A DNA stretch of 64,000 nt from an uncultured Gemmatimonadales bacterium (GTDB lineage Bacteria; Gemmatimonadota; Gemmatimonadetes; Gemmatimonadales; Gemmatimonadaceae). Below are positions 2,795 to 31,989 of this stretch, piece by piece (position 1 is the first letter of the stretch; each line of letters opens with the position of its first letter). The position numbers were made by a program, and so were the translations under genes. The stretch lies in NCBI GenBank assembly GCA_963850905.1, contig CAWKMU010000003.1:32001-96000 (forward strand). The letters run 5' to 3'. Under the pieces are notes generated by a model. The model was given only the letters and a program-made list of their open reading frames with translations. It did no database searches and was not told the origin of the DNA.

Positions 2795-3027
2795 CGGACA
2801 CATTCCTGTACACTCCCGCGTGCGATCCCGAGGAAGTTGCGCCGTTCGGCCGCCGTGAACCGCCCGTTCCCCTCCGCGATATTCGCCGCGATGGACAGTG
2901 CCGCGCGATTGAGCTGGTCCGCCAGGAAGTAGTACCACCGCGGGCCCCGCCCCGTCGCCGTGCACACCGCATCGGCAAACATGACGCTCTTCTGGTACAC
3001 TAGGAGCTTCTCGAAGGCGGACCCCAC
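2795..3027 (-). pseudogene. Four-helix-bundle protein (23S rRNA IVP family), 3' truncated, copy A
   Basis: AFEKLLVYQKS...LADQLNRAALSIAANIAEGNGR...ARGSVQECV, then joins unrelated sequence. Confidence 0.85.
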
Positions 3028-3068
3028 GCGCTCGCGCTACGGCCTCGCGTCAATCCAGCGTCATAGAG

Positions 3069-3208
3069 CAGAAAGGAGAAAGGAGAGAGGAGACCGAGTA
3101 GAACGGCCCCGAGGCGCTCACTGCCTTCGGGGCCGTTAGTTGCTGTTCGTCTACTTTCTACTTTCTGTGTCGCTACTCTCTATTTTTGGCCGCTGTGCGG
3201 CCAAAAAT
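3069..3208. repeat. Double-hairpin module A (heptamer-armed long hairpin 3069-3167 and triloop hairpin 3182-3208)
   Basis: CAGAAAGGAGAAAGGAGA...TCTACTTTCTACTTTCTG with inner stem AACGGCCCCGA/TCGGGGCCGTT; ATTTTTGGCCGC-TGT-GCGGCCAAAAAT. Confidence 0.85.
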
Positions 3209-3253
3209 GGGCCTGGGTAGAGTTGAACTACCGACCTCACGCTTATCAGGCGT
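3208..3253 (-). repeat. tRNA-Ile 3'-half copy 1 (att core, 46 bp)
   Basis: Identical to 40745-40790. Confidence 0.97.
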
Positions 3254-3354
3254 CCCCAAGCCGTCCGGAATGACCGCGATTTGCCCGTTTTCCCTATGAT
3301 AGCCCGCGCCACTGCCCGAGTGCGTGGGCGTAAATGCCCGAACATGACCGGCCC

Positions 3355-3376
3355 AACGGACACCGGAACGGACACC
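3355..3376 (+). repeat. Tandem direct repeat AACGGACACC x2 (putative integrase arm site)
   Basis: 12-bp period, about 102 bp right of core 1. Confidence 0.7.
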
Positions 3377-3428
3377 AGCTGACGGGTGCTTGCTACCGGT
3401 GGCAGACCCGTTGCCACCCGGCGGATCA

Positions 3429-3776
3429 TCACCCGAGTGCGATGACAGCGGTGTCGGCCTGCGCCAGCAGCATCAGGACGGCGTTCAGTTGGGAGCGGAG
3501 GAGCTGGGCAACGTCTGCGGTGGAACAGTTGCCGAGACGAATCCAGATGACCTTGGGCGGCGCTCCGTATAAAACGGTGAGCCGATGAAAGTCTTCGTCT
3601 TTCGTCACGAGGGTGAAGCCGTGCTGACGAGCATACTCCCACACTCTCGCATCGCTGGCTCCCTGGAGGTTGGCCACGCTCACGTGCGTCGAGCGCGGAT
3701 AGACGTCCGACAGTGCCTCGACGAGCCGCGCGGCAAGGTTCTCGTCGAATAACAGCCTCGGAGGAGGCTCAGGCAG
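3429..3776 (-). CDS. DUF5615 PIN-like toxin (VapC45-like)
   Basis: RLLFDENL...SDARVWEYARQHGFTLVTKDEDF...PPKVIWIRLGN; no canonical start, probable CTG at 3776. Confidence 0.85.
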   Translation of the reverse strand: MPEPPPRLLFDENLAARLVEALSDVYPRSTHVSVANLQGASDARVWEYARQHGFTLVTKDEDFHRLTVLYGAPPKVIWIRLGNCSTADVAQLLRSQLNAVLMLLAQADTAVIALG

Positions 3777-3996
3777 CGGGGTTGCTCCGAAGGGTGCGCT
3801 CGCGCTCCGCCGCGAAGGCCAGGCAGGCTCGAATGTCGTCCCGGGTCAGCACCGGGAAATCGGCGAGGACCTGGTCTTCGCTCATGCCCGAGGCCAGATA
3901 TGACAGTACGTCGCCCACGCTAATCCGGGTTCCCCGGACGATGGGTTTGCCGAACCGGATCTCGGGATCGATCACGATCCGCTGGCGGTAATCCAT
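3769..3996 (-). CDS. DUF433 antitoxin (VapB45-like)
   Basis: IVIDPEIRFGKPIVRGTRISVGDVL...DFPVLTRDDIRACLAFA. Confidence 0.92.
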   Translation of the reverse strand: MDYRQRIVIDPEIRFGKPIVRGTRISVGDVLSYLASGMSEDQVLADFPVLTRDDIRACLAFAAERERTLRSNPAA

Positions 3997-4108
3997 AGGT
4001 GGGATCCTAGGGGCCTCGATGAAGGGGGTCAATAGTGACTCGGGCGCGATGGGTAGCGCTCCCGCTCGACGACGCGACTACCCCTGAGGAGCCGCGGCCC
4101 GAGTAGGC

Positions 4109-4137
4109 TTGCCAACTATCCCACTTTGTAGTATACT
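4109..4137 (+). promoter_or_regulatory. sigma70-type promoter of the higBA-like operon
   Basis: TTGCCA-17 bp-TATACT. Confidence 0.65.
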
Positions 4138-4197
4138 TAGGCTCCGTTGGAAGGCGGCGAACTGGCTGGACCCAGCCCGTTAGGGCGGAGCCAAAAG

Positions 4198-4524
4198 GTG
4201 GACTTCGTATTCGTGGAGGTCAGCGTCTTCACTAAGCAGATCGCAAACCTTGGCCTTGATGAGAACCTCCGGCAGTTGCAAATCGAATTACTACTCAACC
4301 CGCGAAAGGGACCAGTCGAACCTGGGACCGGTGGCGTCAGAAAGGTGCGAATGGCGGACAGCTCACGCGGCAAAGGCAAACGATCTGGGACGCGGGTGCT
4401 GTACGTGTATGCTGAAAGTCGCTTGACGATCTATCTACTTTGGCTTTACTCGAAGGGTGAGACGGATCGGCTCTCTGAGGAGCAGAGGAAACAGCTCAGA
4501 GCTATCGTGAAGGGGCTTGTATAG
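4198..4524 (+). CDS. RelE/HigB-family toxin
   Basis: FVEVSVFTK...GTGGVRKVR...GKGKRSGTRVLY...IYLLWLYSKGE. Confidence 0.88.
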   Translation: MDFVFVEVSVFTKQIANLGLDENLRQLQIELLLNPRKGPVEPGTGGVRKVRMADSSRGKGKRSGTRVLYVYAESRLTIYLLWLYSKGETDRLSEEQRKQLRAIVKGLV

Positions 4525-4569
4525 CCTTTGAGTAAACGGTCGGACCAAACATCGTTGGAGTAGGCACAA

Positions 4570-5046
4570 ATGACGGATGACGCAATGGCTCCGGAACAGT
4601 TCGCGGAACTGCTCGGTGCGGTCAAGGAGGCCGCGGCACACTATCGGGGCGAGAAGCTCGAACTACGAACGACGGTGATGCCGGTCCCACCTGGGGCCAT
4701 GTCGCCCACGGCACTACGAGAGTTCAGGAATGCGCTCGGAATGTCGCAGGCCGTATTCGCCGGCTACCTAAACGTCACCCCCAAGGCGGTACAGGCGTGG
4801 GAGCAGGGCGAGCGTCGGCTCTCCGGCTCCGCGCTTGCGCTCGTCCGCCTCGGTCAGCGGAACCCCGAGATTGTATTTCCAATGCAGGCTCGCGCGGCTG
4901 CGACCGGGCTTCAGGCGATCTTCGGCAAGCACTGGACGGACCGCCAGATTGCCGCCAAGCGCGCGGGGCGACCAATTGCGAAGCGTGCAGTCGTCCACGG
5001 AAAGCGCGCCCCGACGCACGCAAAATCCGCACGCGGCTCGCGCTGA
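4570..5046 (+). CDS. HigA-like XRE HTH antitoxin
   Basis: LGMSQAVFAGYLNVTPKAVQAWEQGER; lies downstream of the toxin. Confidence 0.88.
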   Translation: MTDDAMAPEQFAELLGAVKEAAAHYRGEKLELRTTVMPVPPGAMSPTALREFRNALGMSQAVFAGYLNVTPKAVQAWEQGERRLSGSALALVRLGQRNPEIVFPMQARAAATGLQAIFGKHWTDRQIAAKRAGRPIAKRAVVHGKRAPTHAKSARGSR

Positions 5047-5668: not shown

Positions 5669-5807
5669 GCAGAAAGGAGAAAGGAGAGAGGAGACCGAGG
5701 AGCCCGGCCTCGTGGCGCACTCGCCATCCAGACCGCCCGAGCTCTTCGTCTCCTTTCTCCTTTCTGCCTCGCTCCTCTCTATTTTTGGCCGCTGTGCGGC
5801 CAAAAAT
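5669..5807. repeat. Double-hairpin module B
   Basis: Perfect 19-bp IR GCAGAAAGGAGAAAGGAGA (5669-5687)/TCTCCTTTCTCCTTTCTGC (5749-5767); triloop hairpin 5781-5807. Confidence 0.9.
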
Positions 5808-5850
5808 GGGCCTGGGTAGAGTTGAACTACCGACCTCACGCTTATCAGGC
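5807..5850 (-). repeat. tRNA-Ile 3'-half copy 2 (44 bp)
   Basis: Identical to 40745-40788. Confidence 0.97.
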
Positions 5851-5976
5851 ATCTGTAATGCAGACGATCGGCCGACAACTTGCCGGTTCTGCTCTGACGG
5901 TGTCGCCATCCGCCGACCTGCACACTCTCGGAACCGACAGGATGTCGGTCTCAATTGTCCCCAGAATTGTCCCCAA
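5851..5976 (+). repeat. Conserved att right-flank with AATTGTCCCCA x2 arm repeat (5953-5976)
   Basis: Homologous to 9305-9430, 20365-20491 and 1852-1984. Confidence 0.88.
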
Positions 5977-6324
5977 TACGGCGCCCTGCCTCAAGAAAGG
6001 CACCCCATCCACGAAGTACTGTGCCGGAGAACAGGTGTCTCCGTCGCAGTCGATCATCATAGAAATCGTATTCCCGAGAAGATTCTGTGAAGTCGGGCGT
6101 CGCGTGCTCTGGAACGGCGCGCGAACGGTCGCCTTTGTTCTGACCGAGTGATACGTTGCCGGCGTTGAGGCGCAATGTGACAGGATAGCGGAAACTGCGG
6201 CCTGCAGGGGATCTGCTGCGGGAGTTCGTCCAGGGGTTCCAACCCTTTCCCACGCGGTACTGTCCTACACGTGATCCACGGCGCGCTCGCTAGGACCCGC
6301 GACCCCTGTAGCCGGCCACTCGCT

Positions 6325-8772
6325 ATGGAAGCAGCCCTCCAGACCCTGCGCTACGCGGCGCGCCGACTCGCGCGCACGCCCGCGTTCACCCTGATCGCCC
6401 TCGCCACCCTGGCGATCGCGATCGGCGCCAGCACCGCCGCGTTCAGCCTCGTGAACGGGGTGCTTCTCAAGCCACTTGGCTTCGAGCGACCGGACCGCCT
6501 CGCGTATCTCCACGCCACCGAGGCGCGGCAAGTCTTCACGGAGATGGCGCCGCCGGATGTGATCGACTACCAGAACCAGACGCACAGCTTCACCGCGATC
6601 GTTCCCTTCCGGAGTGGACAGACCGTCACCCTCCTCCGCCCCAAAGCCCCTCCGCTGCTCGTCAACGGGGCTCGGGTGGGCGCCGACTTCTTTTCCGTCC
6701 TCGGCACGCACGCACAGCTCGGACGCACGTTTGCGCACGGCGAGGATGCGAGAACGGCGACCCGAGTGCTCGTCCTGTCCGATGGCGCCTGGCATCGGTA
6801 CTTCGCCGCCGACCCCGGGGTCATCGGCAGCCAGGTCAGGCTGGACGGGGACCTTTACATCATCGTTGGTGTGGCGCTGCCTCGGTTCACGTTCCCCGAC
6901 AATGCCGAAGTCTGGTACCCGGCAGTGTGGGGGGACTGGGAGATCGGCGACATTGGCCGGGGCAATCATATTGCCCATGCGATCGCCCGGCTGCGCGATG
7001 GCGTCACGCTCGCCAGCGCCCAGCGCGACCTGAGCACCGTCGCGAGCCGCATCGCTCAACAATTCCCCAAACAGGAAGCTGGGATCGGCGTGGCCGCCGT
7101 CCCGATCCGGCAAGCGATCGTGGGCGACGTGGAGCGGCCGCTCTGGGCCATCCTGGGGGCCGTGATGTTCGTGCTGCTCATTGCCTGCGCGAATGTGGCG
7201 AACCTGCTGCTCGTCCGCGCCGCATCCCGCACGAGCGAAGTGGCCGTGCGCACCGCGCTCGGGGCGGGACGCCGCCAGCTCCTCGGCCAGTCGCTCGCCG
7301 AGAGCATGCTCATCGCCGTGGGCGGGACCGTGCTCGGCACGGTGATCGCTATCTTCGTCGTGCATGTCCTGACGGCGAGCGCCACGCTCGCGCTCCCGCG
7401 CATGCAGGATGTGGGCATCGACATCCGCGTGCTCGCCTTTGCCGCCACGCTTGCCGTTGGCACAGGTGCCGTCTTCGGGCTCATCCCCGCGCTCCATGCG
7501 TCCGGTTGGGACATCGCAACAATTCTTCGCTCTGGCCGGGGGACCGGTGGCTCCGCTGGAAGCGAGCGCGCCCGATCCGTTCTCGTCTTTGCCGAGTTGG
7601 CACTGGGGACCGTGTTGCTCGTGGGGGCTGGGCTCCTGATCCGCAGCTTTGAGCGCTTGACCAACGTAGACCCCGGCTTCAGGCCAGATCACCTCGTGGT
7701 ATTTGATGTCGCCCTGAGCGGCAACAAGTACGAGAACGATCCGCCAGTTATCCAGTTCTCGGACCGGGTGCAAGCAGGACTCGCGGCTATGCCAGGTGTG
7801 CAGAGCGTGGCGGTGGCGGCCAACCGCCCGTTCGATCCGGAAAGCGGCAGCTCGTCGCCGTCGTTCACGATCGACGGCACGCCGCCATCGACACCCGGCA
7901 CAGAGCCCTACGCCCGGCTCGTACCGGTCTCCCCCGACTTTTTCCGCACCATGGGGATGACGCTCGTGCGCGGCCGCACGTTTACCGATGACGAGAACCG
8001 GCTCGACGCGGTCCGGGTGCTGGTGATCAACCAAGCCCTGGCAGACCGCTACTTCCCAGGACAGAACCCGATCGGGCAGCACCTGACGTCCCGCTTTCTT
8101 CACGGCGGTTCCAACCCTGACAGCGCGGTGCACCCCTCCGGAGAGATCATCGGCGTCGTGCGCAATGCGAATTTCGAGTCGCTGAAGACCACACCGGAGC
8201 CGGCGACGTTCTTCCCGTACCGGCGGTTCCCGTTCAACACGACCTTCGTCCTTCGCACCGCACTCCCGCTCACAGGGCTCGAGCACGAGATCCGGCAGGT
8301 GGTCGCATCGATCGATCCTGATGTGCCGATTTATGAGCTCGGGACGATGACCGGAGCCGTGGCCGCATCAATGTCGCAGTCCCGCTTCTACACGTCGTTA
8401 CTCACGGCGTTTGCTGGCATCGCGCTGCTGCTCGCCACCCTAGGCGTTTACGGGGTGATCTCCTACGCGGTGAGCCAGCAGACCCGGGACTTCGGGATTC
8501 GTATTGCGCTGGGCGCGGCCTCGCACGATGTTGTGAACCTTGTGCTCGGACGGGGCGCATTGCTCATCCTCCCTGGCCTGGCGGCGGGCGTAGTGGGGGC
8601 CGTGTTCCTCACGCGTACGATCCGCGGACTCCTCTTCGGCATCACACCACTGGATCCGCCGACGCTTGGGCTCGTGTGCGTCGTGTTCGCCACCGTGGGC
8701 GCGATCGCGTCCTGGCTCCCAGCCCGTCGAGCCGCACGCGTGGATCCGATCATTGCGATGCGCTCGGAATGA
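6325..8772 (+). CDS. ADOP-family duplicated ABC permease (MacB/FtsX-like, orphan)
   Basis: LRYAARRLARTPAFT, LLIACANVANLLL, RTALGA, PARRAARVDPIIAMRSE. Confidence 0.93.
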   Translation: MEAALQTLRYAARRLARTPAFTLIALATLAIAIGASTAAFSLVNGVLLKPLGFERPDRLAYLHATEARQVFTEMAPPDVIDYQNQTHSFTAIVPFRSGQTVTLLRPKAPPLLVNGARVGADFFSVLGTHAQLGRTFAHGEDARTATRVLVLSDGAWHRYFAADPGVIGSQVRLDGDLYIIVGVALPRFTFPDNAEVWYPAVWGDWEIGDIGRGNHIAHAIARLRDGVTLASAQRDLSTVASRIAQQFPKQEAGIGVAAVPIRQAIVGDVERPLWAILGAVMFVLLIACANVANLLLVRAASRTSEVAVRTALGAGRRQLLGQSLAESMLIAVGGTVLGTVIAIFVVHVLTASATLALPRMQDVGIDIRVLAFAATLAVGTGAVFGLIPALHASGWDIATILRSGRGTGGSAGSERARSVLVFAELALGTVLLVGAGLLIRSFERLTNVDPGFRPDHLVVFDVALSGNKYENDPPVIQFSDRVQAGLAAMPGVQSVAVAANRPFDPESGSSSPSFTIDGTPPSTPGTEPYARLVPVSPDFFRTMGMTLVRGRTFTDDENRLDAVRVLVINQALADRYFPGQNPIGQHLTSRFLHGGSNPDSAVHPSGEIIGVVRNANFESLKTTPEPATFFPYRRFPFNTTFVLRTALPLTGLEHEIRQVVASIDPDVPIYELGTMTGAVAASMSQSRFYTSLLTAFAGIALLLATLGVYGVISYAVSQQTRDFGIRIALGAASHDVVNLVLGRGALLILPGLAAGVVGAVFLTRTIRGLLFGITPLDPPTLGLVCVVFATVGAIASWLPARRAARVDPIIAMRSE

Positions 8773-9260: not shown

Positions 9261-9304
9261 TGGGCCTGGGTAGAGTTGAACTACCGACCTCACGCTTATC
9301 AGGC
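9261..9304 (-). repeat. tRNA-Ile 3'-half copy 3 (44 bp)
   Basis: Identical to 40745-40788. Confidence 0.97.
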
Positions 9305-9430
9305 ATCTGGAATGCAGGCGATCGGCCGACAAGTTGTCGGTTCCCCACTGACGGTGTCGCTATCCGCCGACTTGCACACCCGCTCAACCGACAAGATGTC
9401 GGCTCCAATTGTCCCCAGAATTGTCCCCAA
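9305..9430 (+). repeat. Conserved att right-flank with AATTGTCCCCA x2 (9407-9430)
   Basis: Close match to 5851-5976. Confidence 0.88.
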
Positions 9431-9489: not shown

Positions 9490-9837
9490 TCAGCCAGCCA
9501 CGCGTCTCAACTCCGCTTCGCATGCATCGCGCAGTGGACCCAAGTCACTCTCAATCATCCGCCACATGAGTTCCTCGTCTACTTCATCGTACTCGTGGCG
9601 AAGCACGTTCCCGAGTGCGCGCACGTCGATCCACGAAATCGACGGATAGCGCGCATCCATGTGCGTTCCGAGTTTGGCGGCGGCCTCGCTGATCCGACCG
9701 AAGCACCGTTCCACGGCATCCCGGGTCAACGAGCTTTCAGCGAATGCCTCGCCGTTCATCCCGCACACATAGGCACGGATGCGGTCGATGTTCTCGACAA
9801 TGTCGCGAAGCCGACGCGCCGGATCCGACGTTGGCAC
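9490..9837 (-). CDS. HEPN/DUF86 (HepT-like) ribonuclease toxin
   Basis: RLRDIVENIDRI...DAVERCFGRISEA...GNVLRHEYDEVD. Confidence 0.9.
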   Translation of the reverse strand: MPTSDPARRLRDIVENIDRIRAYVCGMNGEAFAESSLTRDAVERCFGRISEAAAKLGTHMDARYPSISWIDVRALGNVLRHEYDEVDEELMWRMIESDLGPLRDACEAELRRVAG

Positions 9838-9849
9838 GAGACCTCGCGC

Positions 9850-10170
9850 CTAGAACGCAACAACGGCGTCCCGCTCAGCCGCGGGCCGCACATGCGGCTG
9901 AAGTCGGCGACGCTGGACCACCTCGATGGGTCTTCCAAGGAGCTCGCCCAGTCCTTGGATCTCCCGGACGGCTCCCACATACGCAAGCAGGGTCGGACGA
10001 CCGGCAGGATCTAACTCAATCATGATGTCGACGTCACTTCCCGGCAGGTCCTCACCTCGAGCCACCGAGCCGAAGACGGCAGCGTGCAACACGCCGCGCC
10101 GCTTTAGTTGTGCGGCCCGAGCGCGGAGGAGCGTGAGAACACGGTCCAGTGTCTTATCAGAGGGTGCCAT
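9850..10170 (-). CDS. Minimal nucleotidyltransferase antitoxin (MntA-like)
   Basis: FGSVARGEDLPGSDVDIM motif; adjacent to the HEPN gene. Confidence 0.9.
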   Translation of the reverse strand: MAPSDKTLDRVLTLLRARAAQLKRRGVLHAAVFGSVARGEDLPGSDVDIMIELDPAGRPTLLAYVGAVREIQGLGELLGRPIEVVQRRRLQPHVRPAAERDAVVAF

Positions 10171-10544
10171 GGTATGGAATCTAAGAACGAATGGCTTAGA
10201 GGGGCCACACCGGCCATTGCCAACCGGGCGAGGCTACTTCGTTTAGAGCTGAATGATCACGACGCTTCTCGTTCATTTGCATTCACCTCGGCCATGCAGC
10301 TGATCTGTCAGGGCCCACCAAGTCCCGCCAGCGACCCCAAGACCCAGCATTCCCTTCGAGGGTGAATAGCCGCCGTCTTCAACCTAGAACCCCGTTACAC
10401 CGCATGGCAGCCAGTTCGGATCGTGCGAGCACCCGGCCGACGCAAGTGTCGTAACAATTATTCACGACAGCCGTTGGCCGAAAAGGCTCTAGCAGGCAGA
10501 CAAGCCGTGTCTTTCCCAATGATACCTATGCGGAACCGCGGTGG

Positions 10545-11057
10545 TCAGGGATGCTGTATGAGCACCGGCCGGCCTGTCGTTGCAACTCCGGGAACCCCAA
10601 GGGCGCCACGGACATTTCGTCCCCAACAGTAGACTTTGCCGTGGTTGGCGACACCGCAGGTATGTTCGAGGCCCGCGCTGATCGACGTGACGTGTATGAT
10701 GTCAATGACGCGTGACGGGTACGGACGCCCGCGACGGTCGGCGCTTTGGTTGGCATCAACCGACCCCCCGCCGAGCTGGCCGCTGACATTTACGCCCCAG
10801 CAGTAGGCGAGGTGGTCGACGCCTATCGCGCACGTGTGCAGCGAGCCGGCGCTGATCGCGACGAAACGCGCGCCGTTTGCGACGCGTACAGGGCGCTCGA
10901 GTCGGTCGCGAAACGCCGGGCCGCCAATGTAGCCTCCGCAGCACCGCGGTACCGTGTCGGCCCCCAGCGCCCCCGTGCCGATCCAACCCCGACAGGACGC
11001 CAGGCCCGCGGCATCGAGCACACAGCCGTGCTGATATCCCATCGTCGGAGGAGCCAC
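10545..11057 (-). pseudogene. RCC1-repeat protein fragment
   Basis: ISAGSLHTCAI...AYCWGVN, ISAGLEHTCGV...VYCWGRN; degenerate with no clear start. Confidence 0.7.
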
Positions 11058-11184
11058 GGCATTCTAGGCGAGCCTTTGCCGAATGAGGCACCGATTGGAT
11101 TGGTAATCGAGTTAACCGGGCTGTTCGAGGGCCTGGCGAGCGCGTATTCACAGTCAGGCGCACAGGCGGGCCTCGTTTAGTTGC

Positions 11185-12889: not shown

Positions 12890-12979
12890 GATGCAAAACT
12901 CCTCGCGTCAAAGTGGGAATGGTCACGACTGTCCGGTCGGAAGCGAGCGGTCACTGTTCATCGATGTGGGTGGCTATGT

Positions 12980-13639: not shown

Positions 13640-14202
13640 AGCCTCGGCCTTTCCGCCCATTAGGGTAGGAACGACCTCAGGCTTTTTATGCCTTAAGTTG
13701 TGCGGCTGAATCAGCCGTGGTGTCGCTCGGTCACAGGCCCAGTCGCAAACTGACTGGCGGAACCCTAGACACAATCGCGAATTGTTGTCCGATTATAAGC
13801 TCGATACAAACCTGACGCCACCTCCTGATCGCCTGCGTCTCTGCTCGTGCTCGGGCGTTGGCCGCTCTCCTTCGAGTAACCAAGGAAAGGATTCGGCTTG
13901 TACCTGAGTCCCACCACGGCTTCCCGCGACCCGGTTAGGCCATGCTCGCCAGTCTCATAACCCAAATCCGTTGCGGACGAGCGGGCGCGCGGAAGCGAGC
14001 GCGCGTCCGCCCACGACAGTGCCAAAGCCGATCGCCCGCGCACCTCGGCTCCGCGCATTGGTGCCTCCGCGCCGTAACGTCGCTGGCTATCGGGTCAGCC
14101 TCGCCAGTTCTTGCAAGCGTGCCGGCACTGGCCTGTGATGCCCTTGCAACGCCTGAATAACCCTGTCCAAACCATTGACCTGAGTGCCCCAAGCGATTCA
14201 AA

Positions 14203-16510: not shown

Positions 16511-17759
<1,249 letters not shown>

Positions 17760-18386: not shown

Positions 18387-18395
18387 GAGAAGTCG

Positions 18396-23169: not shown

Positions 23170-23218
23170 CGCGCTGTACTCCGGTCTCGGTTGGTTCCCC
23201 CCTGTAGCTGCGCGACCT

Positions 23219-24439
23219 TCACTCGGCCCAGATCATCGGGCTCTTGATCCTGCTGCTCAACAGCATCTCGGTGTCGGCGTCGTACGTATACTCCTCCCTC
23301 AGGTCATCATTGATGAAGACCCGCAAGACGCCGCTTTTTGTGTCGTCTCGCGCATAGACACGGCGAGCGTGTGGATATTTGTCGCATGAGACGTTGACAC
23401 CGGAGTCAAACCCCTTCCCGATCGGCGTCAGGCGACACGTCTTCTCGAGCGTGCCGATGACGAACACTCCGTCGGGCGTGATCATGTCCGTGTACAGAAC
23501 TCCGCTGCCATCCGGGAACAGCGTCTGGTGCGTTTCGCCGGGCTTATAGTCAACGACCTTCAATGTCACGTCATCCGCAACCGTGTCATTTGCCAGGAGC
23601 CCATCGGGCCGAATATAGAAATGCGCCGTCTCACGGCTCTTGGGGCGCTGACTCCACACGACGAATATGTGCCAGTGGGGCGGTGCGTCCTCATGGGCAA
23701 CGGCCGGACCTTGCGTGGGAAAATTGGTGTCGAACCCCATCACGCGAATGGTACCGATCCCCTGCTCGTCAACGCGTCGATCGAGACCCAAGGCCCGAAT
23801 CGCCTCGCGGGCTGCGAACTCCAGATTGAGAGCCGCCTGATGCTCGACCTCAGGCCATGGTCCAGTCGCGTAGCGCCCACGTCTGCGCTCAATGTCCGCA
23901 TGTTCAATGCGGATTTGTACCCCCGGCGTTTCAATGTAGGTGTACGTTTCCGTCGCGTCGTCACTGTCGTACCACGGCAACGCCTCTAACGCAGGGTCTA
24001 CGAGCGGCGCGTCGAACTTGATCCCGTCCGCCACCCGTACGAAAGGCACACGGCTACGGCCAACGACAACGGCCCGCACCTGGGACGGGTCGACTTTGAT
24101 CTTGACTCCGACCACGGACTGCAGCGTGGTTGGTGCGCGAAAGTGAAAGTAGAACTCCTTGGAATCCTGCCCATCCGTAAAGCGATTCGAGATCAGCCCA
24201 CACGTCGTACACGACGTTGGAAACACGACGGACCACCTCACTGAATCTGCTTTGACCTTCAAGACGCGCACGCTGAGAAAACCTGGCAACACGTACCACT
24301 CGGCAAGAAAGCCGGGCGGGATCTGAAACCCCTCCTGCTCCAATGCCACTTGTGCTGCGAGCGGGTGTGCGCGTCCTACCAACATGGCGCCCACTGTCAC
24401 AACCGTGGCAAGGGACCTCACTCCGAGCAAACCCTTCAT
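23219..24439 (-). CDS. Secreted hypothetical protein with HEDAPPHWH motif
   Basis: 406-aa ORF with signal peptide, inside the susCD-phosphatase run. Confidence 0.7.
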   Translation of the reverse strand: MKGLLGVRSLATVVTVGAMLVGRAHPLAAQVALEQEGFQIPPGFLAEWYVLPGFLSVRVLKVKADSVRWSVVFPTSCTTCGLISNRFTDGQDSKEFYFHFRAPTTLQSVVGVKIKVDPSQVRAVVVGRSRVPFVRVADGIKFDAPLVDPALEALPWYDSDDATETYTYIETPGVQIRIEHADIERRRGRYATGPWPEVEHQAALNLEFAAREAIRALGLDRRVDEQGIGTIRVMGFDTNFPTQGPAVAHEDAPPHWHIFVVWSQRPKSRETAHFYIRPDGLLANDTVADDVTLKVVDYKPGETHQTLFPDGSGVLYTDMITPDGVFVIGTLEKTCRLTPIGKGFDSGVNVSCDKYPHARRVYARDDTKSGVLRVFINDDLREEYTYDADTEMLLSSRIKSPMIWAE

Positions 24440-24459
24440 TAGTCACCTCGTGTACCGCG

Positions 24460-26039
24460 TTACGGGCAAGTCAACGTCCAGACCCCACCCCGACTCTGTA
24501 TCTCGGATACCGGCACCGGCGCCACTGTCGTGTGGTAGTCGACCCCCGCCGTGCCGGCTACAGCCTGAATAGCAGCGACCGCGAGCGCGTCGGGCCCCGC
24601 CGTCGCCGCCCAAGTGGTATCACTCACCGCCGCCATTCCCCACATGCGAATGGCAATGAGGTGGTCGGCGCTGCCTTCGAGCACGGTGGAGATCCGGAGT
24701 TCCTTCATCAACGTGTCGCGCACCGCCGTGTAGCCCGGCGCGATCGTCAGAGCGGGCAAGCCGCCTGCTTGCTGGTGCACGGTGTTGATGAGCGTGATCG
24801 CGCCCGCGTAGTCCCCGAGCCCGAGGTGAATCTCAGCGCGGACCAGCGCTAATTCCTCCGCGCGCGTAACCGGCACCGGGCCATTCACGGTCGCGGCAGG
24901 CAGATAGCTCACGTCTACGCCCGCCGCTGAGTACTCCGGTAGCTGCAACGGCAGTGGGTTTGGAACAAACTTGTTCTTCCAGCGCAAATCGGCTGCCGAA
25001 TCAACGTCGGCCAACAGATCCTGCATCGGTGCGGTCTGACCATAGTACTGGTTCATCGGATTCGCGTAATCACCCGACTGCCCGCTGTACGTCTCGTACG
25101 CGCCGTATGGATCGAGCGCGAAGGGGCCAGGGACGGGCGGTGCAATGGCGGCGAGATTGTACAGCGCTGAGGCGGCCAGCGCGCTGTCGGCGCGCGTGAG
25201 AGCCGAGGCGTCCGGTGCCCCAGGGGAGCTCGGAGTCGGACTCGTCCCCGGCGTGCTGCGGGCAATGGCATAGGCGAATTCGAGCCCCGCCTTCCCCGCC
25301 AAGGCTCGGTTGAATGCTGCAAAGGCGCCCGGGGTTGTGCTCGGTGCTGCGGTCGCCCCAACCGAGGCGAAGCCCGCCGGCAATATCACCGGCAGCGGGA
25401 TGGCTCCCGCGGTGTTGAGGTCGACAAGTCCCGAGTCGAGAACGGCGACAATGTATTTCCAGACGTCCTTATTGCAGTAGGGCGGGCTTGTGATACCGTC
25501 GTGGATGGCATAGATCGGGACTCCGAGCGTATCAGTCAGCTCAGCCACCCACATGAAGTTCAGCGCCTTGATTGTTTGCGCGATGCCCGCGACCGCGAAT
25601 GCCTGCGCCGGCGTATAGGCAGCCACCTGGGGCAGGATTGCGAGAAGCTGGTTGGCCTGCAGCGCGTATTGAAACGGAGGCGACCACCCCGCGTTGTCAT
25701 ACGGCAACATCGGCGTCTCTCCGCTATAGTGGGTGACCAGCGGAGGCTGCGACGAGAGAAACAGCACTGCGTCGCGCGAAAACGCATTCACCATCCCCAG
25801 GAAGTAACCGTTGGTCTGCTCGGTGCGCATTCCGCCGAACAACCCGGTGATGGCATTTTGCACCCCTGTCGGGCTGTTCGGTATGCTCGTCGGCGCCGTG
25901 AAGTACGGCACGCGTGACTCACCGCACGCCGAAGTCGAGAGATGAATGTGAGGCCAGCAATCAGCGCAGGCCTGTAGCAGCGGCGTGTTGCGCCCCGAGG
26001 CGACGCGGCTCGCTCGTCGATCGAGAACGAGGGAATCAT
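24460..26039 (-). CDS. SusD/RagB family lipoprotein, frameshift near 25935
   Basis: Follows susC; SAC lipobox across the shift; RAEELALVRAEI, ELRISTVLEG. Confidence 0.8.
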
Positions 26040-26040
26040 G

Positions 26041-29000
26041 TCAAAAGCCCAGATCAAGGGAAAGGAAATAACTGCGCGCAGGCGGGTAAGGCGTGATCTG
26101 AAAGCCGCGCTCCACATCCTCGCTTTGGAACCAGGTCGCCGCCGGGTCCATGCCCGTGTAACCTGACGAGTACGAGTGCAGGAGATTCCGACCGGTGAGG
26201 TTGAGCCGTGCGCTCGCGATGCGCCCGCCGAGCGCGCGACTGATCCAGCGGGCCGGAACCGTGTAGCTTAGCGCAACCTCCCGGAGCCAGATCGTACTCG
26301 CTGGCTCTACAAACGGCGTGAGGTTCTGCACGGCCTGCTGGACACGTTTCGCCTCCAGAGCGGTATCGGCCAGCAGGAAGGGACCGTAGTCGAAGTAGTA
26401 GTTCGTGAGGTTGCTGATACTCGCACCCCGCTGCCACTCGACCAGGCCAGAGAGGCGGAACCCGCCGTAGCTAATCGAGTTATTGAAGGTCATGACATAG
26501 GACGGCTGGCCGTCGCCGACCTGCTTGGGCATGCCGTCCGAGGTCAGGACTGCCGTATTCACTATGTCCGAAACGGACCGTCCCACCTGGATCCAGTATT
26601 CCCCGTACGGGCCACCGAATTCCTCGTACCCTGGGGTGAATGGCCCGACTGGCAACGCATTCACGACGCTGTAGTTGCGATAGAACGTCGTCGTCGTGAG
26701 CCACGTCAGCCCTTGCGGCGTCTGCACAGGTGTGGCCGAGAGCGATAGCTCAATTCCCTGGTTCGTGAATTCGCCACCGTTCGACCAGTCGCTCGTGTAT
26801 CCGAGCGACGCGGGCACACCCGCCTGAAGCAGTAGATTCGTGATGCGCTTTTGATACACGGTCGCGCTGAGCTGTGCTCGCGATCGAAACATCGTCCCGT
26901 CAACGCCCATCTCGATTTCCGCCTCCGACTCAGGCTTGATGGTTGGATCGCCCAGCGTGGTCGTGTTCGTGATCCCGGGCAGCCCACTCGCGATGAGTGT
27001 CGTGAGAGGCGTGTACTGGACGCCGTAATTGGGTTGCGTCCCCGATTGCCCGTACGCGGCCCGCAGCTTGAGCTCGTCCAAAAAGCCCACAAACTGTGGG
27101 ACGCGATACGACGCCGAGTACCGCGGGTAGGCGTAGAATTTGTTGAAGTTGCCGTCGTTCGACGTGCGCTCCGCCGTGACCCCGGCCGTCACGGCCAAGC
27201 GGTCCGACAGCGTGATGACTTGCTCCTGCGCGTACCACGACTGATCGTGTTGCGCCGACTTGGAGAAGAAATTGCTCTGCACCGCCCCGATCGCTGGCAA
27301 TGCCGCGCCTGCGATCAGCTGTTGCGAGACGCTGGACGGGTTGATCAGCTGTCAATGTTCGTCGCCAAATCCCACCAATGTCGTAAAGTCCAGCTGCGAC
27401 AGTCCTGTGTAGTGGTGGATAACGTTCAGCGAGAGGTTCGAGTACGAGGTGTTCGCTTCTGCGGTCGTCGCGACCCCTGGCAGTGACGTCGCCTGCTCGA
27501 CCTGCAGAGCCGGCGGCGCATAGAGATCGTCGTGTTGATCGGTGTAGTCCGCTCCGCCAAGGACGTTGACGCGAAGGCTCTGATGCTCCGTGCTCCAGGC
27601 CGTCCAGTTGATGTTGCCGCCGCCAATGAAGCGGTTTACAGTCTCCGGCGTTTGGACCTCGGCGGCGTCCGCGAACGGATTCGCGGGGCCAAACGGGTTA
27701 ACCGGCCAGAGACCGTCCGCATGCTGCTGATCCAGCGTCACGAACTGCGGCGTGTACGCAAACGCGTTGTACGGGGCGATGCCGATATTGTCGTTCCCAC
27801 TGATCCCGCGCCGGGTGAGCGAGTGCGCGTATGTGAGATTCGCCGAGACCGAGAGGGTGCTGAAGAGCTGCTGCGTGACGTTCGCGCGGACGGTGCTTTT
27901 TTGGTACCCGGTGTTCGTCTGAATCCCGTTGTCGTACTTGGCGAGCCCCGACACGAAATACTGGGTCTGCGCCAGCGCCCCGCTCAAGCTGATGTCCGTT
28001 TCGTACGCGGCCTGCGGATTGCTGAACAGCTGGCTCTGGTAGTCCTGCGGACCCGAGTAGACCGACGCGATCTTGGATTCGCCATACCCGAGCGGTGCCC
28101 CCCAATCCTGTGCACTCGCGAGCGTCGGGAACTGTCGAAGAGCTAAAGTCTGCGCATCGGTGAAGTGGCCGACCGTTTGCGAGATCAACCACGAGGGCTT
28201 GCCGGCGGTCCCATGCTTCGTCGTGATGATGATCACCCCCAATGACGCCTTGGACCCGTAGATCGCCGACGCCGACGCGCCCTTCAAGACCTCGACCGAC
28301 TCAATGTCGTCCGGGTTGAGGTCAGCAATGCGGTTGGTGCCGTTGTCGACCTCGTTGGGCTGCAGGACTCCGCCCGCAGTAATGGCACTCTCGCCGGAGT
28401 AGGCCGTCTGGTTGTTCACGATCACCCCGTCGACGACGTAGAGCGGTGTCGCCGCCGCGTTGATGGACGTGATCCCCCTGATCTGCACGTAGAGCCCCCC
28501 ACCGGGGGCCCCGCTGTTGTTCGTCTCGATCACTGCGCCGGGCACCTGGCCTTGCAGCGAGTTCTCGATAGTCGGCGCTGGCACAGCCGTGATGTTCTGC
28601 GCGGGGACGACCGCGACGTCGTTCGCGGCGTTCTGAGACGACACAGTTGTCGCCACCCCCGTGACCACCTGCGCCTCGAGGCGAAGGACGTCCTGCCGCA
28701 GCGCGACGGTGTAGTCCATCTGTCCCGCGACGATCGGCACGATCTGGGCGAGATAACCAATGCGACGCACCGTCAGTGATTTCGCACCCGTGGGAAGCCG
28801 GAAACTGAACGTTCCGCTGTCCGTGGTGTTTTGTCCTGTCGTGGTGCCTGTTACCACAACGGACGCAGCGGCCACGGGCTGCTTACTGCCGGCGTCGAGC
28901 ACTCGCCCCGTAACCCGCGAGTCTTGACGGTGCGTGCTGGTGTGTTCGTCGATACGCGGTGGTCGCCCAACCAGCACGGCATCACCGCGAATCGAGACGT

Positions 29001-29370
29001 ATGCTGGGAGTCCGGTGCCCTCGAGCACGATCGCCAAGGCGTTGGCAACACTCACGTTTGCCACGTGGAGCGAGACATGCGCTCGCGACGCCAGCACGTC
29101 TGGCCCCAACTGGATTGCGACACCTGCGGCTTCGCCGACTGCGAGCAGGGCGTCTTTGAGCGAGGAAACGCGAAGGTCGAGCGAGACCGACTCCCGAAGG
29201 ATCGCAGCGGCGCTGTTGGTCGTCCGCACCCACGTGTCCTGCCGTGTATCGGGGGGAGTGTTTGCGGCGAGCGCGTTCGAGTCAGGCGTTCGCGTCGGCT
29301 CCTGAGCTGCGATCCGAGCGGCGAACATCGCGAGAGCGAATGCGAATCGAGGTACAATTGTCACGGTCAT
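26041..29370 (-). CDS. SusC/RagA TonB-dependent receptor with N-terminal signalling domain, frameshift near 27350
   Basis: PLYVVDGV, DLNPDDIESVEVLKGASASAIYGSKA, C-terminal YPPARSYFLSLDLGF. Confidence 0.9.
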
Positions 29371-29408
29371 TGGATGTTCCGCCGAACACAAGAGGACGCG
29401 AGCAGAGC

Positions 29409-30481
29409 TCACGATCGCGGGATGGCATGGAAGGTCACTGTTCGGCCAGTACGCTCGTAGCGCGTGCCAGTGAGCAACACGAGTGCGTCGAGCACTTCGG
29501 TGCTGCTCTGGGAGCCGAATGTGACTGTCAGCAGTTGACGTCCGAGCGCGGGATCCGCGAGCTGTATGTCGAGATCCCACCAGCGACCGATCAATGCACT
29601 GACCTCGCTGAAGGGCACTGAGTCGAAGGCGAGACGTCCTTCCGTCCAGCCAATTGCTGCAGCGGATTTCACTCCGTGCCGGAGCGCAGCCAACTGACCT
29701 GACGTATCGATCAGCGCGAGATCGTTTGCTTGTAATTCGACCTGGGCGACGTTGACCTTGCCTTCGGAAACGACCACCTGCCTCCGCGTCGCGCCGCCAT
29801 AGGCCGTAACGGCGAACCGCGTCCCGATATCGCGGATAGTGAGGTGGCCGGCATGGACTGCGAAGGGACGGGCCGCGTCATGTCGGACCACAAAGTACGC
29901 TTCGCCGTCGAGGTAAACATCGCGTGTCGGCTCGCCGTAATCGTCGGGAATGCGAAGGCTTGTAGCGGCGCCCAACACGATCTGCGTTCCATCATCCAGT
30001 TGGAGATTGGCGCGTTGCGCCGGGCGGGTCGAGAATTCTCGCGCGCCCCGAGGCGACGCGGGGTGCGGCTGTCGAATCCGACCAATCGCGATGCCCCCGT
30101 CACACCCAGGACTGCGAGCACGAACGCAGCCGCGGCCGCTGCGGGAAACCGGATCAGCGCTGTCCTCCAGGAGTCCCGACGCTCGCCCCGAACCACCAAC
30201 AGGGCTTTGCGGCGCTCACTCGAAGCAATGACCCGCCCCTCGACATCGCGGCCTTCTCTCGCCGCGGCAGTCAGTCGCGCACTCAGTCGGACCCATGCCG
30301 TCTCAGGATCTGTCATGCGCGACCGCGACTCGAGGGCGCGCGCAAGTTTGCGAAGCAATGCCAGTTCTGCAGCACGATCCGGTCGAGCCGCCAGCCAGCG
30401 CTCCACCTCGGCGCGCTCGGCTGGGGAGCACGCTCCGGTAATGTGGCGAGCCAGCAAATGATGATCGGACGAATCGTGCAT
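29409..30481 (-). CDS. FecR-family anti-sigma factor, frameshift near 30040
   Basis: ERAEVERWLAA N-terminus; RDVYLDGEAYFVV, DIGTRF, VSEGKV. Confidence 0.85.
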
Positions 30482-30577
30482 CGGGTGCCTGGCGCTCGGG
30501 TCAGCGAGTTTCCGCTATTTCAATGCGGAACCTCCGGCAAAACCCAACGTCCCTTTCCAAGCGCGGTGCTAACCGAC

Positions 30578-31261
30578 TCAGAAGAACTTCTCGAGTTCTC
30601 GGCGAATGGCCCTGAGGCCGAGCATGATCTCCCGCTCGACATACTTGACGGACGTTCCCATTGTTCGCGCGACCTCGGCGTTCGCGAGGTGGTACTCCCA
30701 GCGCAACGTCACCGCCAGGCGCCGACGCTCCGGCAGGTGCCCTAATGCCGCATGCAGCGCTGCGGTCACCTCGTTCCGACGACAGGCTTCGTCGGTGGGC
30801 TCGGGGCCTTGCCCCATGCCAGTACGTTCCACGCCGCCGCTGGCAGCCGCCTCCCATCTACTCGCGACGCGGTCATGCCGCCGACGTCCGGACAGGTAGT
30901 TGCGTACCGCCACGACCAGATACGCTTGGATACTGCCGCGCAGCTTCCACCGAGGACCAAGCGCCCAAATGTTGTACATCACGTCTTGTACGCATTCGTC
31001 CGCGAGATCCTTGTCCTGCGTCAGTGCCACTACGTAGGCGTGTAGCTCGACGTAGTACACGTCGAACATGGTCTTGAACGCTCCGGCATCCCCTGCGCGA
31101 ATGCGCGCGGCCATCGCCGCATCGGCCGTCGGTGGTGACAGCTCGTCCAGCCGGTCGCGACGCACTGAACTCGGCACCTGCATCGGGCCGGCCAGCGAAA
31201 GCCCTGGGGCGGGATCCGCCATCGAACTGACGACCTGGAGGTCCGCAGCTGGATCGGTCAT
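30578..31261 (-). CDS. ECF RNA polymerase sigma-70 factor
   Basis: IRAGDAGAF...ADECVQDV...LPERRRLAVTL...EVARTMGTS; adjacent to FecR; start uncertain. Confidence 0.88.
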   Translation of the reverse strand: MTDPAADLQVVSSMADPAPGLSLAGPMQVPSSVRRDRLDELSPPTADAAMAARIRAGDAGAFKTMFDVYYVELHAYVVALTQDKDLADECVQDVMYNIWALGPRWKLRGSIQAYLVVAVRNYLSGRRRHDRVASRWEAAASGGVERTGMGQGPEPTDEACRRNEVTAALHAALGHLPERRRLAVTLRWEYHLANAEVARTMGTSVKYVEREIMLGLRAIRRELEKFF

Positions 31262-31681
31262 GGGCCGTCACGATTATGCCCACGTTTGCTGACGCGCAAG
31301 GCACCTTACCGATCGCTCTCTGGTCGACAACTATAGGGCGCGTCGAAAGAATCGACCGACACGTGACCAAGTTGTGACCACCGGAGAAACGCCCGGCCGC
31401 CTGCGGCGATCATCAACGCACAAGGAATGGCTGCTCATCCCTAGGCTCGTCGCTACAGATCGAGCAAGGGCTCGACGAGAATCAATGCCACGATCGCGAA
31501 CTCGAGGAGCTCCGCGCGGGGTGCTTAGGCTTCGCTGTTCAGCATGCGCACATCTCACGGAGGTTGGGAGCTTGCGGTCAGTGCCGCGACGCAACTCCTG
31601 GCGCCCGAAAGAGACTCGACCCCGCGGGTTGCCGGTCAGGAACTGGCCGACGACAGAGCCGGCACAAGTCGACCATCGCTG

Positions 31682-31777
31682 CAGCCCCGCGGCAAGCGCC
31701 GCCTCGCCGCGCACACAGCGTCGGCCAGTCCCACACTCTTCTGGTACCACGAGAAGCTTCTCGAACGCAAACGCCAT
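31682..31777 (-). pseudogene. Four-helix-bundle protein, short 5' remnant, copy D
   Basis: MAFAFEKLLV/(+1 G)YQKSVGLADAVCAARRRLPRG. Confidence 0.75.
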
Positions 31778-31817
31778 GCGTCTATGCTGCCCGATCGGCG
31801 TCGGCAGACCGTCAGGG

Positions 31818-31948
31818 CAGAAAGTAGAAAGTAGAGGGAGTAGCACGGCCCCGTGGCGCTCACTGCCATCGGGGCCGCTGTTGCTGTTCGTCTACTTTCT
31901 ACTTTCTGTTTCGCTACCCTCTATTTTCCCCGCTCCGCGGGGAAAAAT
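31818..31948. repeat. Double-hairpin module D
   Basis: Perfect 18-bp IR CAGAAAGTAGAAAGTAGA (31818-31835)/TCTACTTTCTACTTTCTG (31891-31908); ATTTTCCCCGC-TCC-GCGGGGAAAAAT. Confidence 0.9.
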
Positions 31949-31989
31949 GGGCCTGGGTAGAGTTGAACTACCGACCTCACGCTTATCAG
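31948..31989 (-). repeat. tRNA-Ile 3'-half copy 6 (42 bp); att end of the intact element
   Basis: Identical to 40745-40786; identity ends exactly at the 7-nt anticodon loop CTGATAA. Confidence 0.97.

Follow-up and report, generated by a model that had tools for sequence, protein, structure and literature searches.

What places the same small module, a hairpin, a structured leader and a four-helix-bundle gene, behind one tRNA end again and again, in the position usually held by an integrase? The window, the whole 64,000-nt stretch of Gemmatimonadales DNA analyzed here, holds four such modules, all on the minus strand (Table 1). Each follows a core that is a 42-46-nt exact copy of the tRNA-Ile(GAT) 3′ part ending with the discriminator base (3208, 5807, 14625 and 31948), and, as the preliminary description had proposed, each consists in the direction of tRNA transcription of a 12-bp triloop hairpin starting at that base (H1; one bulge in the 31948 copy), a region of AG-rich and CT-rich heptamers and a PF05635/TIGR02436 gene. 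A covariance model, the building of which had also been proposed, scores the four leaders at 56-92 bits, three of them being training sequences of the model. The gene is intact at 5208-5627 and broken differently in the other three, where the match ends after ~77, ~82 and ~30 codons. Four cores was correct as a count of those with a module; two further cores (9261, 20321) lack one, and more modules lie beyond the window on contigs C3 (at 13.9 kb and 17.5 kb), C4 and C6. The integrase said to take the module's position beside the intact tRNA is there as a weak tyrosine-integrase match. Cargo units of the window are flanked by attL and attR.

Table 1. Features of the window discussed in the text
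Feature	Position	Strand	Evidence
Paired 10-bp direct repeats, no core behind	1961..1982	-	
Four-helix-bundle gene, ends after ~77 codons	2795..3027	-	
Leader: S1 + heptamer arrays	3069..3182	-	
Hairpin H1	3182..3208	-	
att core, 46 nt	3208..3253	-	
Cargo: DUF433/DUF5615 pair + RelE-like/HTH pair (toxin-antitoxin type)	3429..5046	.	
Intact four-helix-bundle gene, 139 aa, GTG start, tRNA-end clade of TIGR02436/PF05635	5208..5627	-	
Conserved junction + pyrimidine-rich heptamer array b′	5670..5696	-	
Helix S1, 3′ strand	5697..5703	-	
Purine-rich heptamer array b, within S1 loop	5748..5766	-	
Covarying helix S1, 5′ strand	5771..5777	-	
Hairpin H1, 12 bp, 3-nt loop, first base = discriminator	5781..5807	-	
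att core, 44 nt	5807..5850	-	
Paired 10-bp direct repeats, probable arm-type sites	5953..5974	-	
Cargo: MacB/FtsX permease	6271..8772	+	
att core, module absent	9261..9304	-	
Paired 10-bp direct repeats, probable arm-type sites	9407..9428	-	
Cargo: HepT/nucleotidyltransferase pair, RCC1 repeats, alkaline phosphatase, GNAT	9490..14058	-	
Four-helix-bundle gene, ends after ~82 codons	14200..14445	-	Short-read contig matches junction
Leader: S1 + heptamer arrays	14488..14599	-	
Hairpin H1	14599..14625	-	
att core, 44 nt	14625..14668	-	
Cargo: Mrp/NBP35, Nfu, nitroreductase	16511..20173	+	
att core, module absent	20321..20364	-	
Paired 10-bp direct repeats, probable integrase arm-type sites (role inferred)	20468..20489	-	
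Cargo: phosphoesterase, SusC-like receptor, FecR, ECF sigma	20605..31261	-	
Four-helix-bundle gene remnant, ~30 codons, frame gone near codon 11	31685..31777	-	
Leader: helix S1 + heptamer arrays	31811..31923	-	Covariance-model score 55.9 bits, outside training set
Hairpin H1, one bulge, from discriminator base	31923..31948	-	
att core, 42 nt, identical to tRNA 3′ part	31948..31989	-	
Tyrosine-integrase-like gene, newest island	39288..40646	+	PF00589 E 2.7e-4, under curated cut-off
Intact tRNA-Ile(GAT), island-array anchor, no module behind	40745..40818	-	ARAGORN; Rfam 71 bits

The window array is not an assembly chimera, the artifact that would have undone the preliminary description. Contigs from short-read runs match positions 3222-5251, 5224-5619 and 14120-14583 with 0, 2 and 0 differences; this check is one of contigs, none of which crosses the whole stretch, with the truncation points at 3208 and 31948 outside its coverage, and joints between copies in these contigs, whose sides measure 28-30 nt, were left out of it.

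A census of homologs bears out the expected linkage to tRNA ends and hairpins, and not its absence. A tRNA or tmRNA end lies 106-337 bp upstream of the clade gene on the same strand at 101 of 136 loci, or at 97 of the 132 distinct loci with enough flank, and H1 starts at the discriminator base (N73) in 80 of 103 copies. In an evenly drawn sample, the 15 new loci included 13 with a tRNA or tmRNA in this position; other TIGR02436/PF05635 members lie behind a tRNA in 0 of 24 cases in one set, and within the same five genomes in 0 of 16 cases versus 5 of 6 for clade copies. Targets span 15 tRNA species, Pro foremost. The clade gene is patchily distributed, present in 17 of 401 Planctomycetota (~4%) and single-copy in most Planctomycetes, and the element occupies 3 of 12 and 2 of 14 related loci in a comparison that left out the G856 loci, relatives of G417 being uninformative (12 of 13 loci without a tRNA). 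A junction pattern drawn from the Planctomycete form found 0 of 401 Gemmatimonadota and missed G000 itself, so this count concerns that form alone. At three loci (G006, L326 and L327) the leader lies upstream of a tRNA instead; L326 and L327 appear to be one sequence. On the protein tree, target tRNA changes 29 times versus 30.4 when shuffled and gives no signal, a comparison of low power given the poor resolution of the tree (6 of 85 branches starred; 5 loci holding stops left out). Host class changes 15 times versus 24.7 and does give a signal, and much of the inheritance is therefore vertical.

H1 is matched to the base at which it begins. Its pairing follows the discriminator (A:T, G:C and CCA:TGG), G73 pairing with C in Gln, Ser and Trp targets and an encoded CCA being paired within H1 in 12 copies. 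The stem is perfect in 91 of 102 copies, with 67 different arms and 3 G.U versus 4 A.C pairs, under a scoring that favors perfect stems; the hairpin search gave no call at 8 of 104 loci. Among 72 triloops, 27 are of the C-GNA-G type of DNA mini-hairpins and 10 of its reverse, and the likeness of the H1 loop to this motif is suggestive only. An intrinsic terminator was rejected as the identity of H1, since the T-run precedes the stem and no terminator is called there, as was a palindrome of the P-nucleotide type, since the stems have non-complementary loops.

In the leader, the preliminary description saw a ~90-100-nt hairpin with heptamer arms. This hairpin does fold in silico (z -8.0 as RNA, -7.1 as DNA), but the covariation in the leader lies elsewhere: none is seen at the variable heptamer positions among 62 aligned copies, and neither a nested nor a parallel register of array pairing covaries (best p 0.044 of 8 tests). 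The covarying structure is S1, a 9-bp helix with compensatory changes in 8 of 9 pairs that contributes all of the best five covarying column pairs in an alignment of 59 of 101 loci and 3 window copies, and its span is constant at ~81-93 nt though the spacer sequence is free. One scan gave no S1 call at ~20 loci, several of which show S1 by eye. Folding programs assign S1 a probability below 0.5 in 96 of 101 copies, and a pseudoknot, a kinetic state or protein is therefore needed; a nested fold can contain S1 or the heptamer duplex but not both. The helices of the element show no G.U excess, unlike usual RNA helices, and the sole match of the leader to Rfam models is a chance one to a miRNA (28 bits, E 0.39). 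Both heptamer arrays lie upstream of the gene, and ~75 downstream flanks, from every second locus, hold no conserved downstream arm. A TAnnnT motif 5-8 nt before the start codon in 47 of 144 copies (null 7.4) reads by sequence and position as the -10 box of a leaderless mRNA, present in a third of copies and absent from the intact one in the window. The heptamer arrays and S1 would overlie the -35 region of the gene's promoter, so the protein probably autoregulates.

The product of 5208-5627 scores above the curated cut-offs of the TIGR02436 and PF05635 HMMs (88.2 versus 24 bits and 88.7 versus 33.8 bits, respectively). Its predicted structure of four long helices (pLDDT 88.7) matches 2GSC (rmsd 1.2 Å) and 2RLD, the closest structures; both entries have five chains, and by this analogy the protein may be a pentamer. 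The tRNA-end clade is separate within the family tree (SH-aLRT 99), with hosts that are mostly Planctomycetota (60-77% identity) plus one Gemmatimonadales genus, and dN/dS values of 0.035-0.22 in 10 of 11 pairs indicate purifying selection on the protein. The family as a whole is very large (22,669 clusters at E<=0.001), and we know of no function, catalytic activity or mobility activity for it. Searches of plasmids, phages and IMG/VR returned relatives of just 26-38% identity and no clade gene.

Acquisition of the element is visible in the one clean filled/empty pair. Between G418 (filled) and G822 (empty), whose flanking proteins are 97-99% identical, ~85 bp including the native terminator have been replaced and homology returns ~8 nt past the stop codon, with no target duplication, attR or integrase; the 5′ boundary is fixed at the discriminator base and the 3′ boundary lies near the stop codon. 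The element is gained with loss of the native terminator in this pair, and it switches between tRNA genes and between phyla. Where G769 carries it at two tRNA-Pro genes, the copies are ~98% identical from the leader to codon 9 and ~80% identical beyond. Clade loci show no downstream terminal repeat and no transposase, which with replacement in place of duplication sets them apart from insertion sequences and MITEs, and the clade gene has no integrase, RT or other recurrent neighbor. Heptamer repeats are limited to the Gemmatimonadales genus, with 43-222 matches where the gene or fragments are present versus 1-23; G003 has a gene fragment yet 1 match, and in five Planctomycetes the repeats have not spread (0-9 matches). 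A hairpin abuts 58 of 77 heptamer arms versus 4 of 500 random sites (82 clusters). One of the two origins proposed at the outset, an element of structured nucleic acid and protein at tRNA 3′ ends, is supported by the census, the patchy spread, the filled/empty pair and the two-tRNA-Pro genome.

On balance we think it probable that the module is a recombinase-free selfish element of ~0.5 kb, composed of H1, an S1 leader with two opposed heptamer arrays and the four-helix-bundle gene, that resides on tRNA and tmRNA 3′ ends and spreads by what we infer to be one-ended copying. As an Avd-like ring, the protein would bind S1 and the heptamer arrays of its own element and keep that element at the transcribed tRNA gene, with H1 stacked on the folded acceptor stem. 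Host repair would copy the element starting from the tRNA side through T-arm and acceptor homology and take the host discriminator, CCA or trailer as template for the hairpin arm; copying that halts at a variable point would leave 3′-truncated and gene-less copies. In the window, each integrase island entering tRNA-Ile would displace the resident copy to behind an att core, and a new copy would then settle on the restored tRNA end, so that the module would come to occupy the usual integrase position.

The att cores also invite a reading in which the module is a passenger on tRNA-targeting integrative elements, located on the P′ side of attP and moved in trans by tyrosine integrases, after which the remainder of the island decays. 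Every window copy lies behind such a core; arm-type repeats stand ahead of three cores, and in two relatives with island-end-like downstream DNA they also come after the intact tRNA; the cassette in common with G001 is 97% identical versus 83% for the backbone; an att-like repeat directly follows the gene in L232 and L251; and of the 35 loci that lack a tRNA call, 25 have a tRNA-remnant-like motif, in a count of short motifs with no chance control. We nevertheless consider this reading unlikely: a tRNA-end repeat occurs in the 1-3 kb downstream flank at 6 of 73 loci versus 2 in the reverse control, the filled/empty pair and the neighbors offer neither attR nor a recurrent integrase, the clade gene was not found on plasmids, on phages or in IMG/VR, and an H1 arm matched to N73 and CCA is unexplained by integrase action. 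Island traffic does operate here, and the window copies therefore follow att cores. This much survives of the other proposed origin, a native tRNA-Ile flank, taken here as a single copy duplicated through assembly chimerism or plain island carry-over. The module does lie behind an intact tRNA-Ile in G002, G003 and G007, and the MAG has strain-like duplicated contigs and long-read frameshifts; as an origin, however, the native flank is refuted and we give it almost no credence, since copies in the window genome are 71-91% identical to one another and confirmed by short-read contigs, G004 and G001 carry like arrays, and Ile is 1 of the 97 targets.

Purifying selection, single copies in most Planctomycetes, the exclusive S1 and heptamer folds and the steady S1 span would each suit a domesticated regulatory unit, whose leader RNA would switch from S1 to the later heptamer duplex and couple tRNA processing or read-through to a host-beneficial protein, with rare accidental movement. 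The ~4% prevalence, many different targets, a cross-phylum jump, plentiful truncated copies and the missing G.U excess make such a unit a distinctly doubtful proposition. A retro-element, in which an RT acting in trans, aided by the Avd-like protein, would copy the tRNA-trailer RNA for homing to tRNA ends, draws on the resemblance of the protein fold to Avd, an RT cofactor described as a pentamer binding DGR RNA (10.1101/2023.10.23.563531). PF00078 is present in G528 and G623, but it has no match in G000 (82% complete), G004 (93%), G002 (67%) or G769, RT is not among recurrent neighbors, and the variable end is the transcript 3′ end, the reverse of target-primed truncation; we regard this origin as very improbable.

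The recombinase-free element may further represent a class of mobile element that dispenses with transposase, integrase, nuclease domain and RT alike, a possibility that we entertain tentatively. Here, a 120-residue Avd-like ring would recognize both the folded tRNA-gene 3′ end and the heptamer/S1 leader of its own element, drive site-exact insertion at the discriminator with a target-templated hairpin, and mobilize gene-less hairpin-arm repeats in trans. If true, this would be the first activity for PF05635 and would hint at a mobility role at the origin of Avd; the clade gives the family what a test of it had been missing: a defined cognate nucleic acid, a precisely known target site, an allele in filled and empty form and a synthesizable 0.5-kb unit. 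An element mobile in this way would integrate at tRNA genes by a route for which no enzyme is known, and would account for the heptamer-tailed hairpin repeats and for the heads of integrase-less islets in tRNA arrays. The literature searched offered no description of a tRNA-end element.

Several known systems share parts of this arrangement. Additive flexible genomic islands at tRNA genes, exchanged between species in the account of PMC5217437, resemble the window's att-core-separated cassettes and fit the array, though not the module heading four units. With REP/RAYT, as presented in PMC3733652, the element's repeats share dispersed short palindromes with a conserved tail; REP sequences are described there as short GC-rich hairpins dispersed at gene ends, with one gene-bearing master, whereas the partner of the element is not an HUH/Y1 transposase, and the repeat flanking the genome's single Y1 gene is of another, GTAG type. 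The fold shared with Avd (PDB 4DWL, 8UB7), already claimed in the preliminary description, holds at TM 0.67/0.83 to 4DWL with 9% identity, and material in PMC10053308 also supports the Avd link. In contrast to a diversity-generating retroelement, the element has no linked RT. None of the 20 largest repeat families looked on inspection like a template/variable repeat pair with adenine mismatches. A generic four-helix-bundle gene between inverted heptamer arms has the same family, opposed heptamer arrays and gene-less repeat relatives; the element differs in having both arrays upstream of the gene, a crossing covarying S1, a discriminator-tied hairpin and a separate clade. The 23S rRNA intervening sequence (IVS), which at helix 45 in Coxiella burnetii carries an S23p ORF, belongs with the same protein family and is portrayed in PMC4990558 as a selfish, horizontally gained insert in a stable-RNA unit without a recombinase. 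By that portrayal, the IVS lies inside rRNA with its ORF in the loop of the terminal stem and its S23p is decaying, whereas the element sits in the tRNA 3′ trailer with its gene outside the paired arms, takes the place of the terminator, often brings a -10 box of its own, and maintains an ORF under purifying selection.

The array in the window is an additive tRNA island, a concept set out in PMC5217437, as identified by its att-core copies, lone integrase-like gene, cargo units and shared cassette. Six 42–46-nt copies of the tRNA-Ile(GAT) 3′ part (att cores) lie downstream of the intact gene within the window, and further copies occur at 17.5 kb of contig C3 and at the end of C4 of the same metagenome-assembled genome (MAG; G000). 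The window spans positions 32001-96000 of C3, and the nearest named relatives mark the MAG as a Gemmatimonadales bacterium from soil. Ordinary cargo genes fill the units between cores, the only integrase-like gene in the window adjoins the intact tRNA-Ile, and a cassette common to G000 and the compared genome G001 is 97% identical versus 83% for the backbones. Paired 10-bp direct repeats, which we infer to be integrase arm sites, precede three att cores and recur behind intact tRNA-Ile in G001 and G006. Duplicated segments of 81–98% identity relate the C4 end, C1, C2 and C5 of G000 to the start of C3 and to C4 600–630 kb; the island extends over more than one contig, and variant strains may be mixed in the MAG. 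The split in the window's alkaline phosphatase gene probably stems from long-read error, as may further split genes in the MAG.

Coordinates of features in the window, elsewhere in the MAG (G000) and in extracted loci (L)
Feature	Location	Strand	Remark
tRNA-Ile(GAT), single intact copy	window 40745-40818		
Intact four-helix-bundle gene	window 5208-5627		
Newest island	window 32000-40646		divergent integrase; many ORFs without Pfam match
Rep ORF2/G2P-like protein, newest island	window 32484-33053		
One-base insertions	window 11993, 12209, 12928		not present in short-read contigs
Guanidine-I riboswitch-like match	window 13674-13779	-	start of GNAT gene; 41.5 bits, below gathering score 63
Second REP family, GTAG-type, with a Y1 transposase	G000:C3:875102-875353; window 49228-63650		326 matches with one mismatch allowed; related GTAG repeat on the transposase's flanks
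IS30-like transposase	L001:14642-16195		interrupts G001-common cassette
tRNA 3′ half	L265:2295-2582 (G000:C3 ~2,004,300-2,004,582)		not called by ARAGORN; likewise G004:C1 near 1,277,500
c-di-GMP-I riboswitch	L265:3083-3179		above gathering score
Gene-less leader	L326/L327:4980-5250		upstream of tRNA gene, behind 12-bp copy of tRNA 5′ end

As the preliminary description proposed, four cores are followed by a hairpin (H1), a heptamer leader and a four-helix-bundle gene, which is intact in one copy and, as also described, truncated in the other three, after ~77, ~82 and ~30 codons. The module is missing behind two of the six att cores and behind the intact tRNA-Ile. Islands account for the att cores; the module heading four units would reflect recolonisation of a restored tRNA end or a captured donor tRNA flank.

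Relatives of the module gene (the best 80 metagenomic and best 80 GTDB loci listed, 160 in all, at 57–94% identity) come mostly from Planctomycetota and form a clade to which 11 other family members do not belong (SH-aLRT 99, from 118 columns and with long outgroup branches). A same-strand tRNA or tmRNA end lies 106–337 bp before the start in 101 of the 136 listed loci with at least 350 bp upstream; counted as distinct sequences these are 97 of 132, which bears out the suspected association of homologues with tRNA. Targets among the 97 distinct matches listed are Pro (79), tmRNA (4), Met (4), Gln (3), Arg (3), Glu (2), Ile (1) and Ala (1). In an evenly drawn sample of 401 Planctomycetota genomes, with 10 candidates scored per genome, the clade is present in at least 17; there an intact tRNA precedes 16 of 20 clade loci (13/15 among those previously unseen), adding the targets Ser(CGA), Gln(TTG), Ala(CGC) and Glu(TTC). 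Among the controls, tRNA association was seen for 0 of 24 distantly related family members near G000, and in five Planctomycete genomes a tRNA or tmRNA precedes five of six clade members and 0 of 16 non-clade members. Heptamer arms flank most non-clade genes on both sides. Within the genus of G000, the module lies behind tRNA-Ile in G002, G003 and G007, behind tRNA-Pro in G000, G002 and G004, and upstream of tRNA-Ile instead in G006 (L009). One element (L203) stands behind tRNA-Pro within a 17-tRNA-gene array, and in tandem copies (L160, L157, L196, L242, L308) the second hairpin begins at or beside the first gene's stop codon.

Among 103 distinct junctions, the discriminator is exactly the first base of H1 in 80, and in nine H1 begins one base sooner. 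Where CCA is encoded (12/103) its complement is present in the far arm, and a G discriminator (Gln, Ser and Trp in G000) is met by a closing C; 91 of 102 copies form a perfect hairpin, and 67 different arms occur. Behind H1 follow an invariant AGA, segment a, purine-rich heptamers b, a free spacer, a′, a conserved junction and pyrimidine-rich heptamers b′ before the start codon. Across 62 aligned copies, compensatory change marks 8 of the 9 pairs of helix S1 (a:a′), which also contains all five best covarying column pairs, counts that kinship inflates, and pairing at variable heptamer positions was not above shuffled. Folding energy favours the long heptamer hairpin (b:b′) of the preliminary description, S1 exceeding a probability of 0.5 in only 5 of 101 copies, but S1 alone is conserved pair by pair. 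Given the order a-b-a′-b′, S1 would be either a pseudoknot or an alternative state; its a-to-a′ span clusters at 81–93 nt. G·U pairs are not in excess over A·C in H1 (3 versus 4) or S1 (11 versus 17), which tilts the balance towards a structure in DNA or copying from a template. Of 144 copies, 47 carry a TAnnnT box 5–8 nt ahead of the start (null 7.4, with a maximum of 18 of 1000), and the window's intact copy has none; seven of the 47 boxes consist of heptamer bases, and b′ overlies the −35 position. Both arrays of sub-lineages L254, L257, L262, L306, L311 and L313 carry 8-nt repeats, so the repeat unit changes in concert. About 75 downstream flanks of element loci, every second locus, hold no conserved terminal feature, and Rfam has no model for the module.

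Comparison of the close genomes G418 (filled site) and G822 (empty site), with flanking proteins 97–99% identical, defines one gain. The G418 element begins after the discriminator and one or two bases common to G822, takes the place of ~85 bp with the native terminator hairpin, and ends ~8 nt past the stop codon; neither target duplication nor attR was found in this pair. One of 13 loci of this type is filled and three are cut by contig ends. At other sites the element occupies 3 of 12 tRNA-Pro GGG loci, where one copy is gene-less and the closest relative has no element, and 2 of 14 fMet loci. Copies at two tRNA-Pro genes of G769 have leaders ~98% identical up to codon 9 and genes ~80% identical thereafter, which on sequence evidence reads as a tract of copying fixed at its tRNA end. 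In the arrays the 5′ ends of copies fall mainly into two groups, one at the att core (−41 to −49) and one at −11 to 0 relative to the discriminator, and some copies start internally; their 3′ ends are scattered. On the protein tree, target type carries no signal (29 versus 30.4 changes; 93/300 shuffles as low) and host class does (15 versus 24.7). The protein is under purifying selection, with dN/dS of 0.035–0.22 in 10 of 11 pairs and 0.51 in the closest.

Gene-less relatives are widespread in G000, where 82 clusters of module-type heptamers occur and a hairpin abuts 58 of 77 heptamer arms versus 4 of 500 random sites. Among 49 tRNA-end rows, a script recorded an arm in seven and inspection by eye in a further three, and in four a perfect stem starts at the discriminator. 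The repeat is limited to this genus among 41 genomes, with 1 match in the other 31; within this small set of kin, six genomes with a clade gene or fragments by protein search hold 43–222 matches and the remaining four 1–23, and G003 has a short gene fragment yet 1 match. In five Planctomycetes the repeat has not spread (0–9 matches). The tRNA 3′ half in L265, preceded by a weak match to a group I intron (24.9 bits), is possibly an intron-split tRNA-Lys(UUU) or Asn, and carries a gene-less module at its discriminator.

These data establish where the element's boundaries lie, that one pair records its gain with loss of the terminator, that it has switched targets, that selection acts on the protein, and that H1 and S1 covary. 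We consider it somewhat better than an even bet that an Avd-like ring of the protein would bind the heptamers and S1, that the protein would autoregulate, and that host repair would copy the element one-endedly from the tRNA side. Within 3 kb of the loci, neither an integrase nor an RT nor any other partner turns up repeatedly; carriage as a passenger of integrases is an appreciably weaker candidate, and a domesticated switch is doubtful. An RT-dependent element is less probable again, since in four carriers no RT was found. Least credible is a native flank or chimera: the intact gene, positions 3222-5251 and the junction at 14625 are all recovered in short-read contigs, and arrays of this kind also occur in G004 and G001, which excludes the assembly chimerism considered earlier as the cause of the copies.

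One-ended, repair-mediated copying of a protein-bound element remains our preferred reading. The Avd likeness noted earlier holds, as the protein's predicted structure matches Avd, if less well than it does 2GSC and 2RLD. In open-access PMC and bioRxiv we found no literature tying the TIGR02436/PF05635 family to tRNA ends; related work appears in PMC10053308, 10.1101/2024.02.27.582315, PMC8700078, PMC3733652, 10.1101/2023.10.23.563531 and PMC4990558. The tRNA-end module is real, and is a variant form among IVS-type four-helix-bundle selfish elements.
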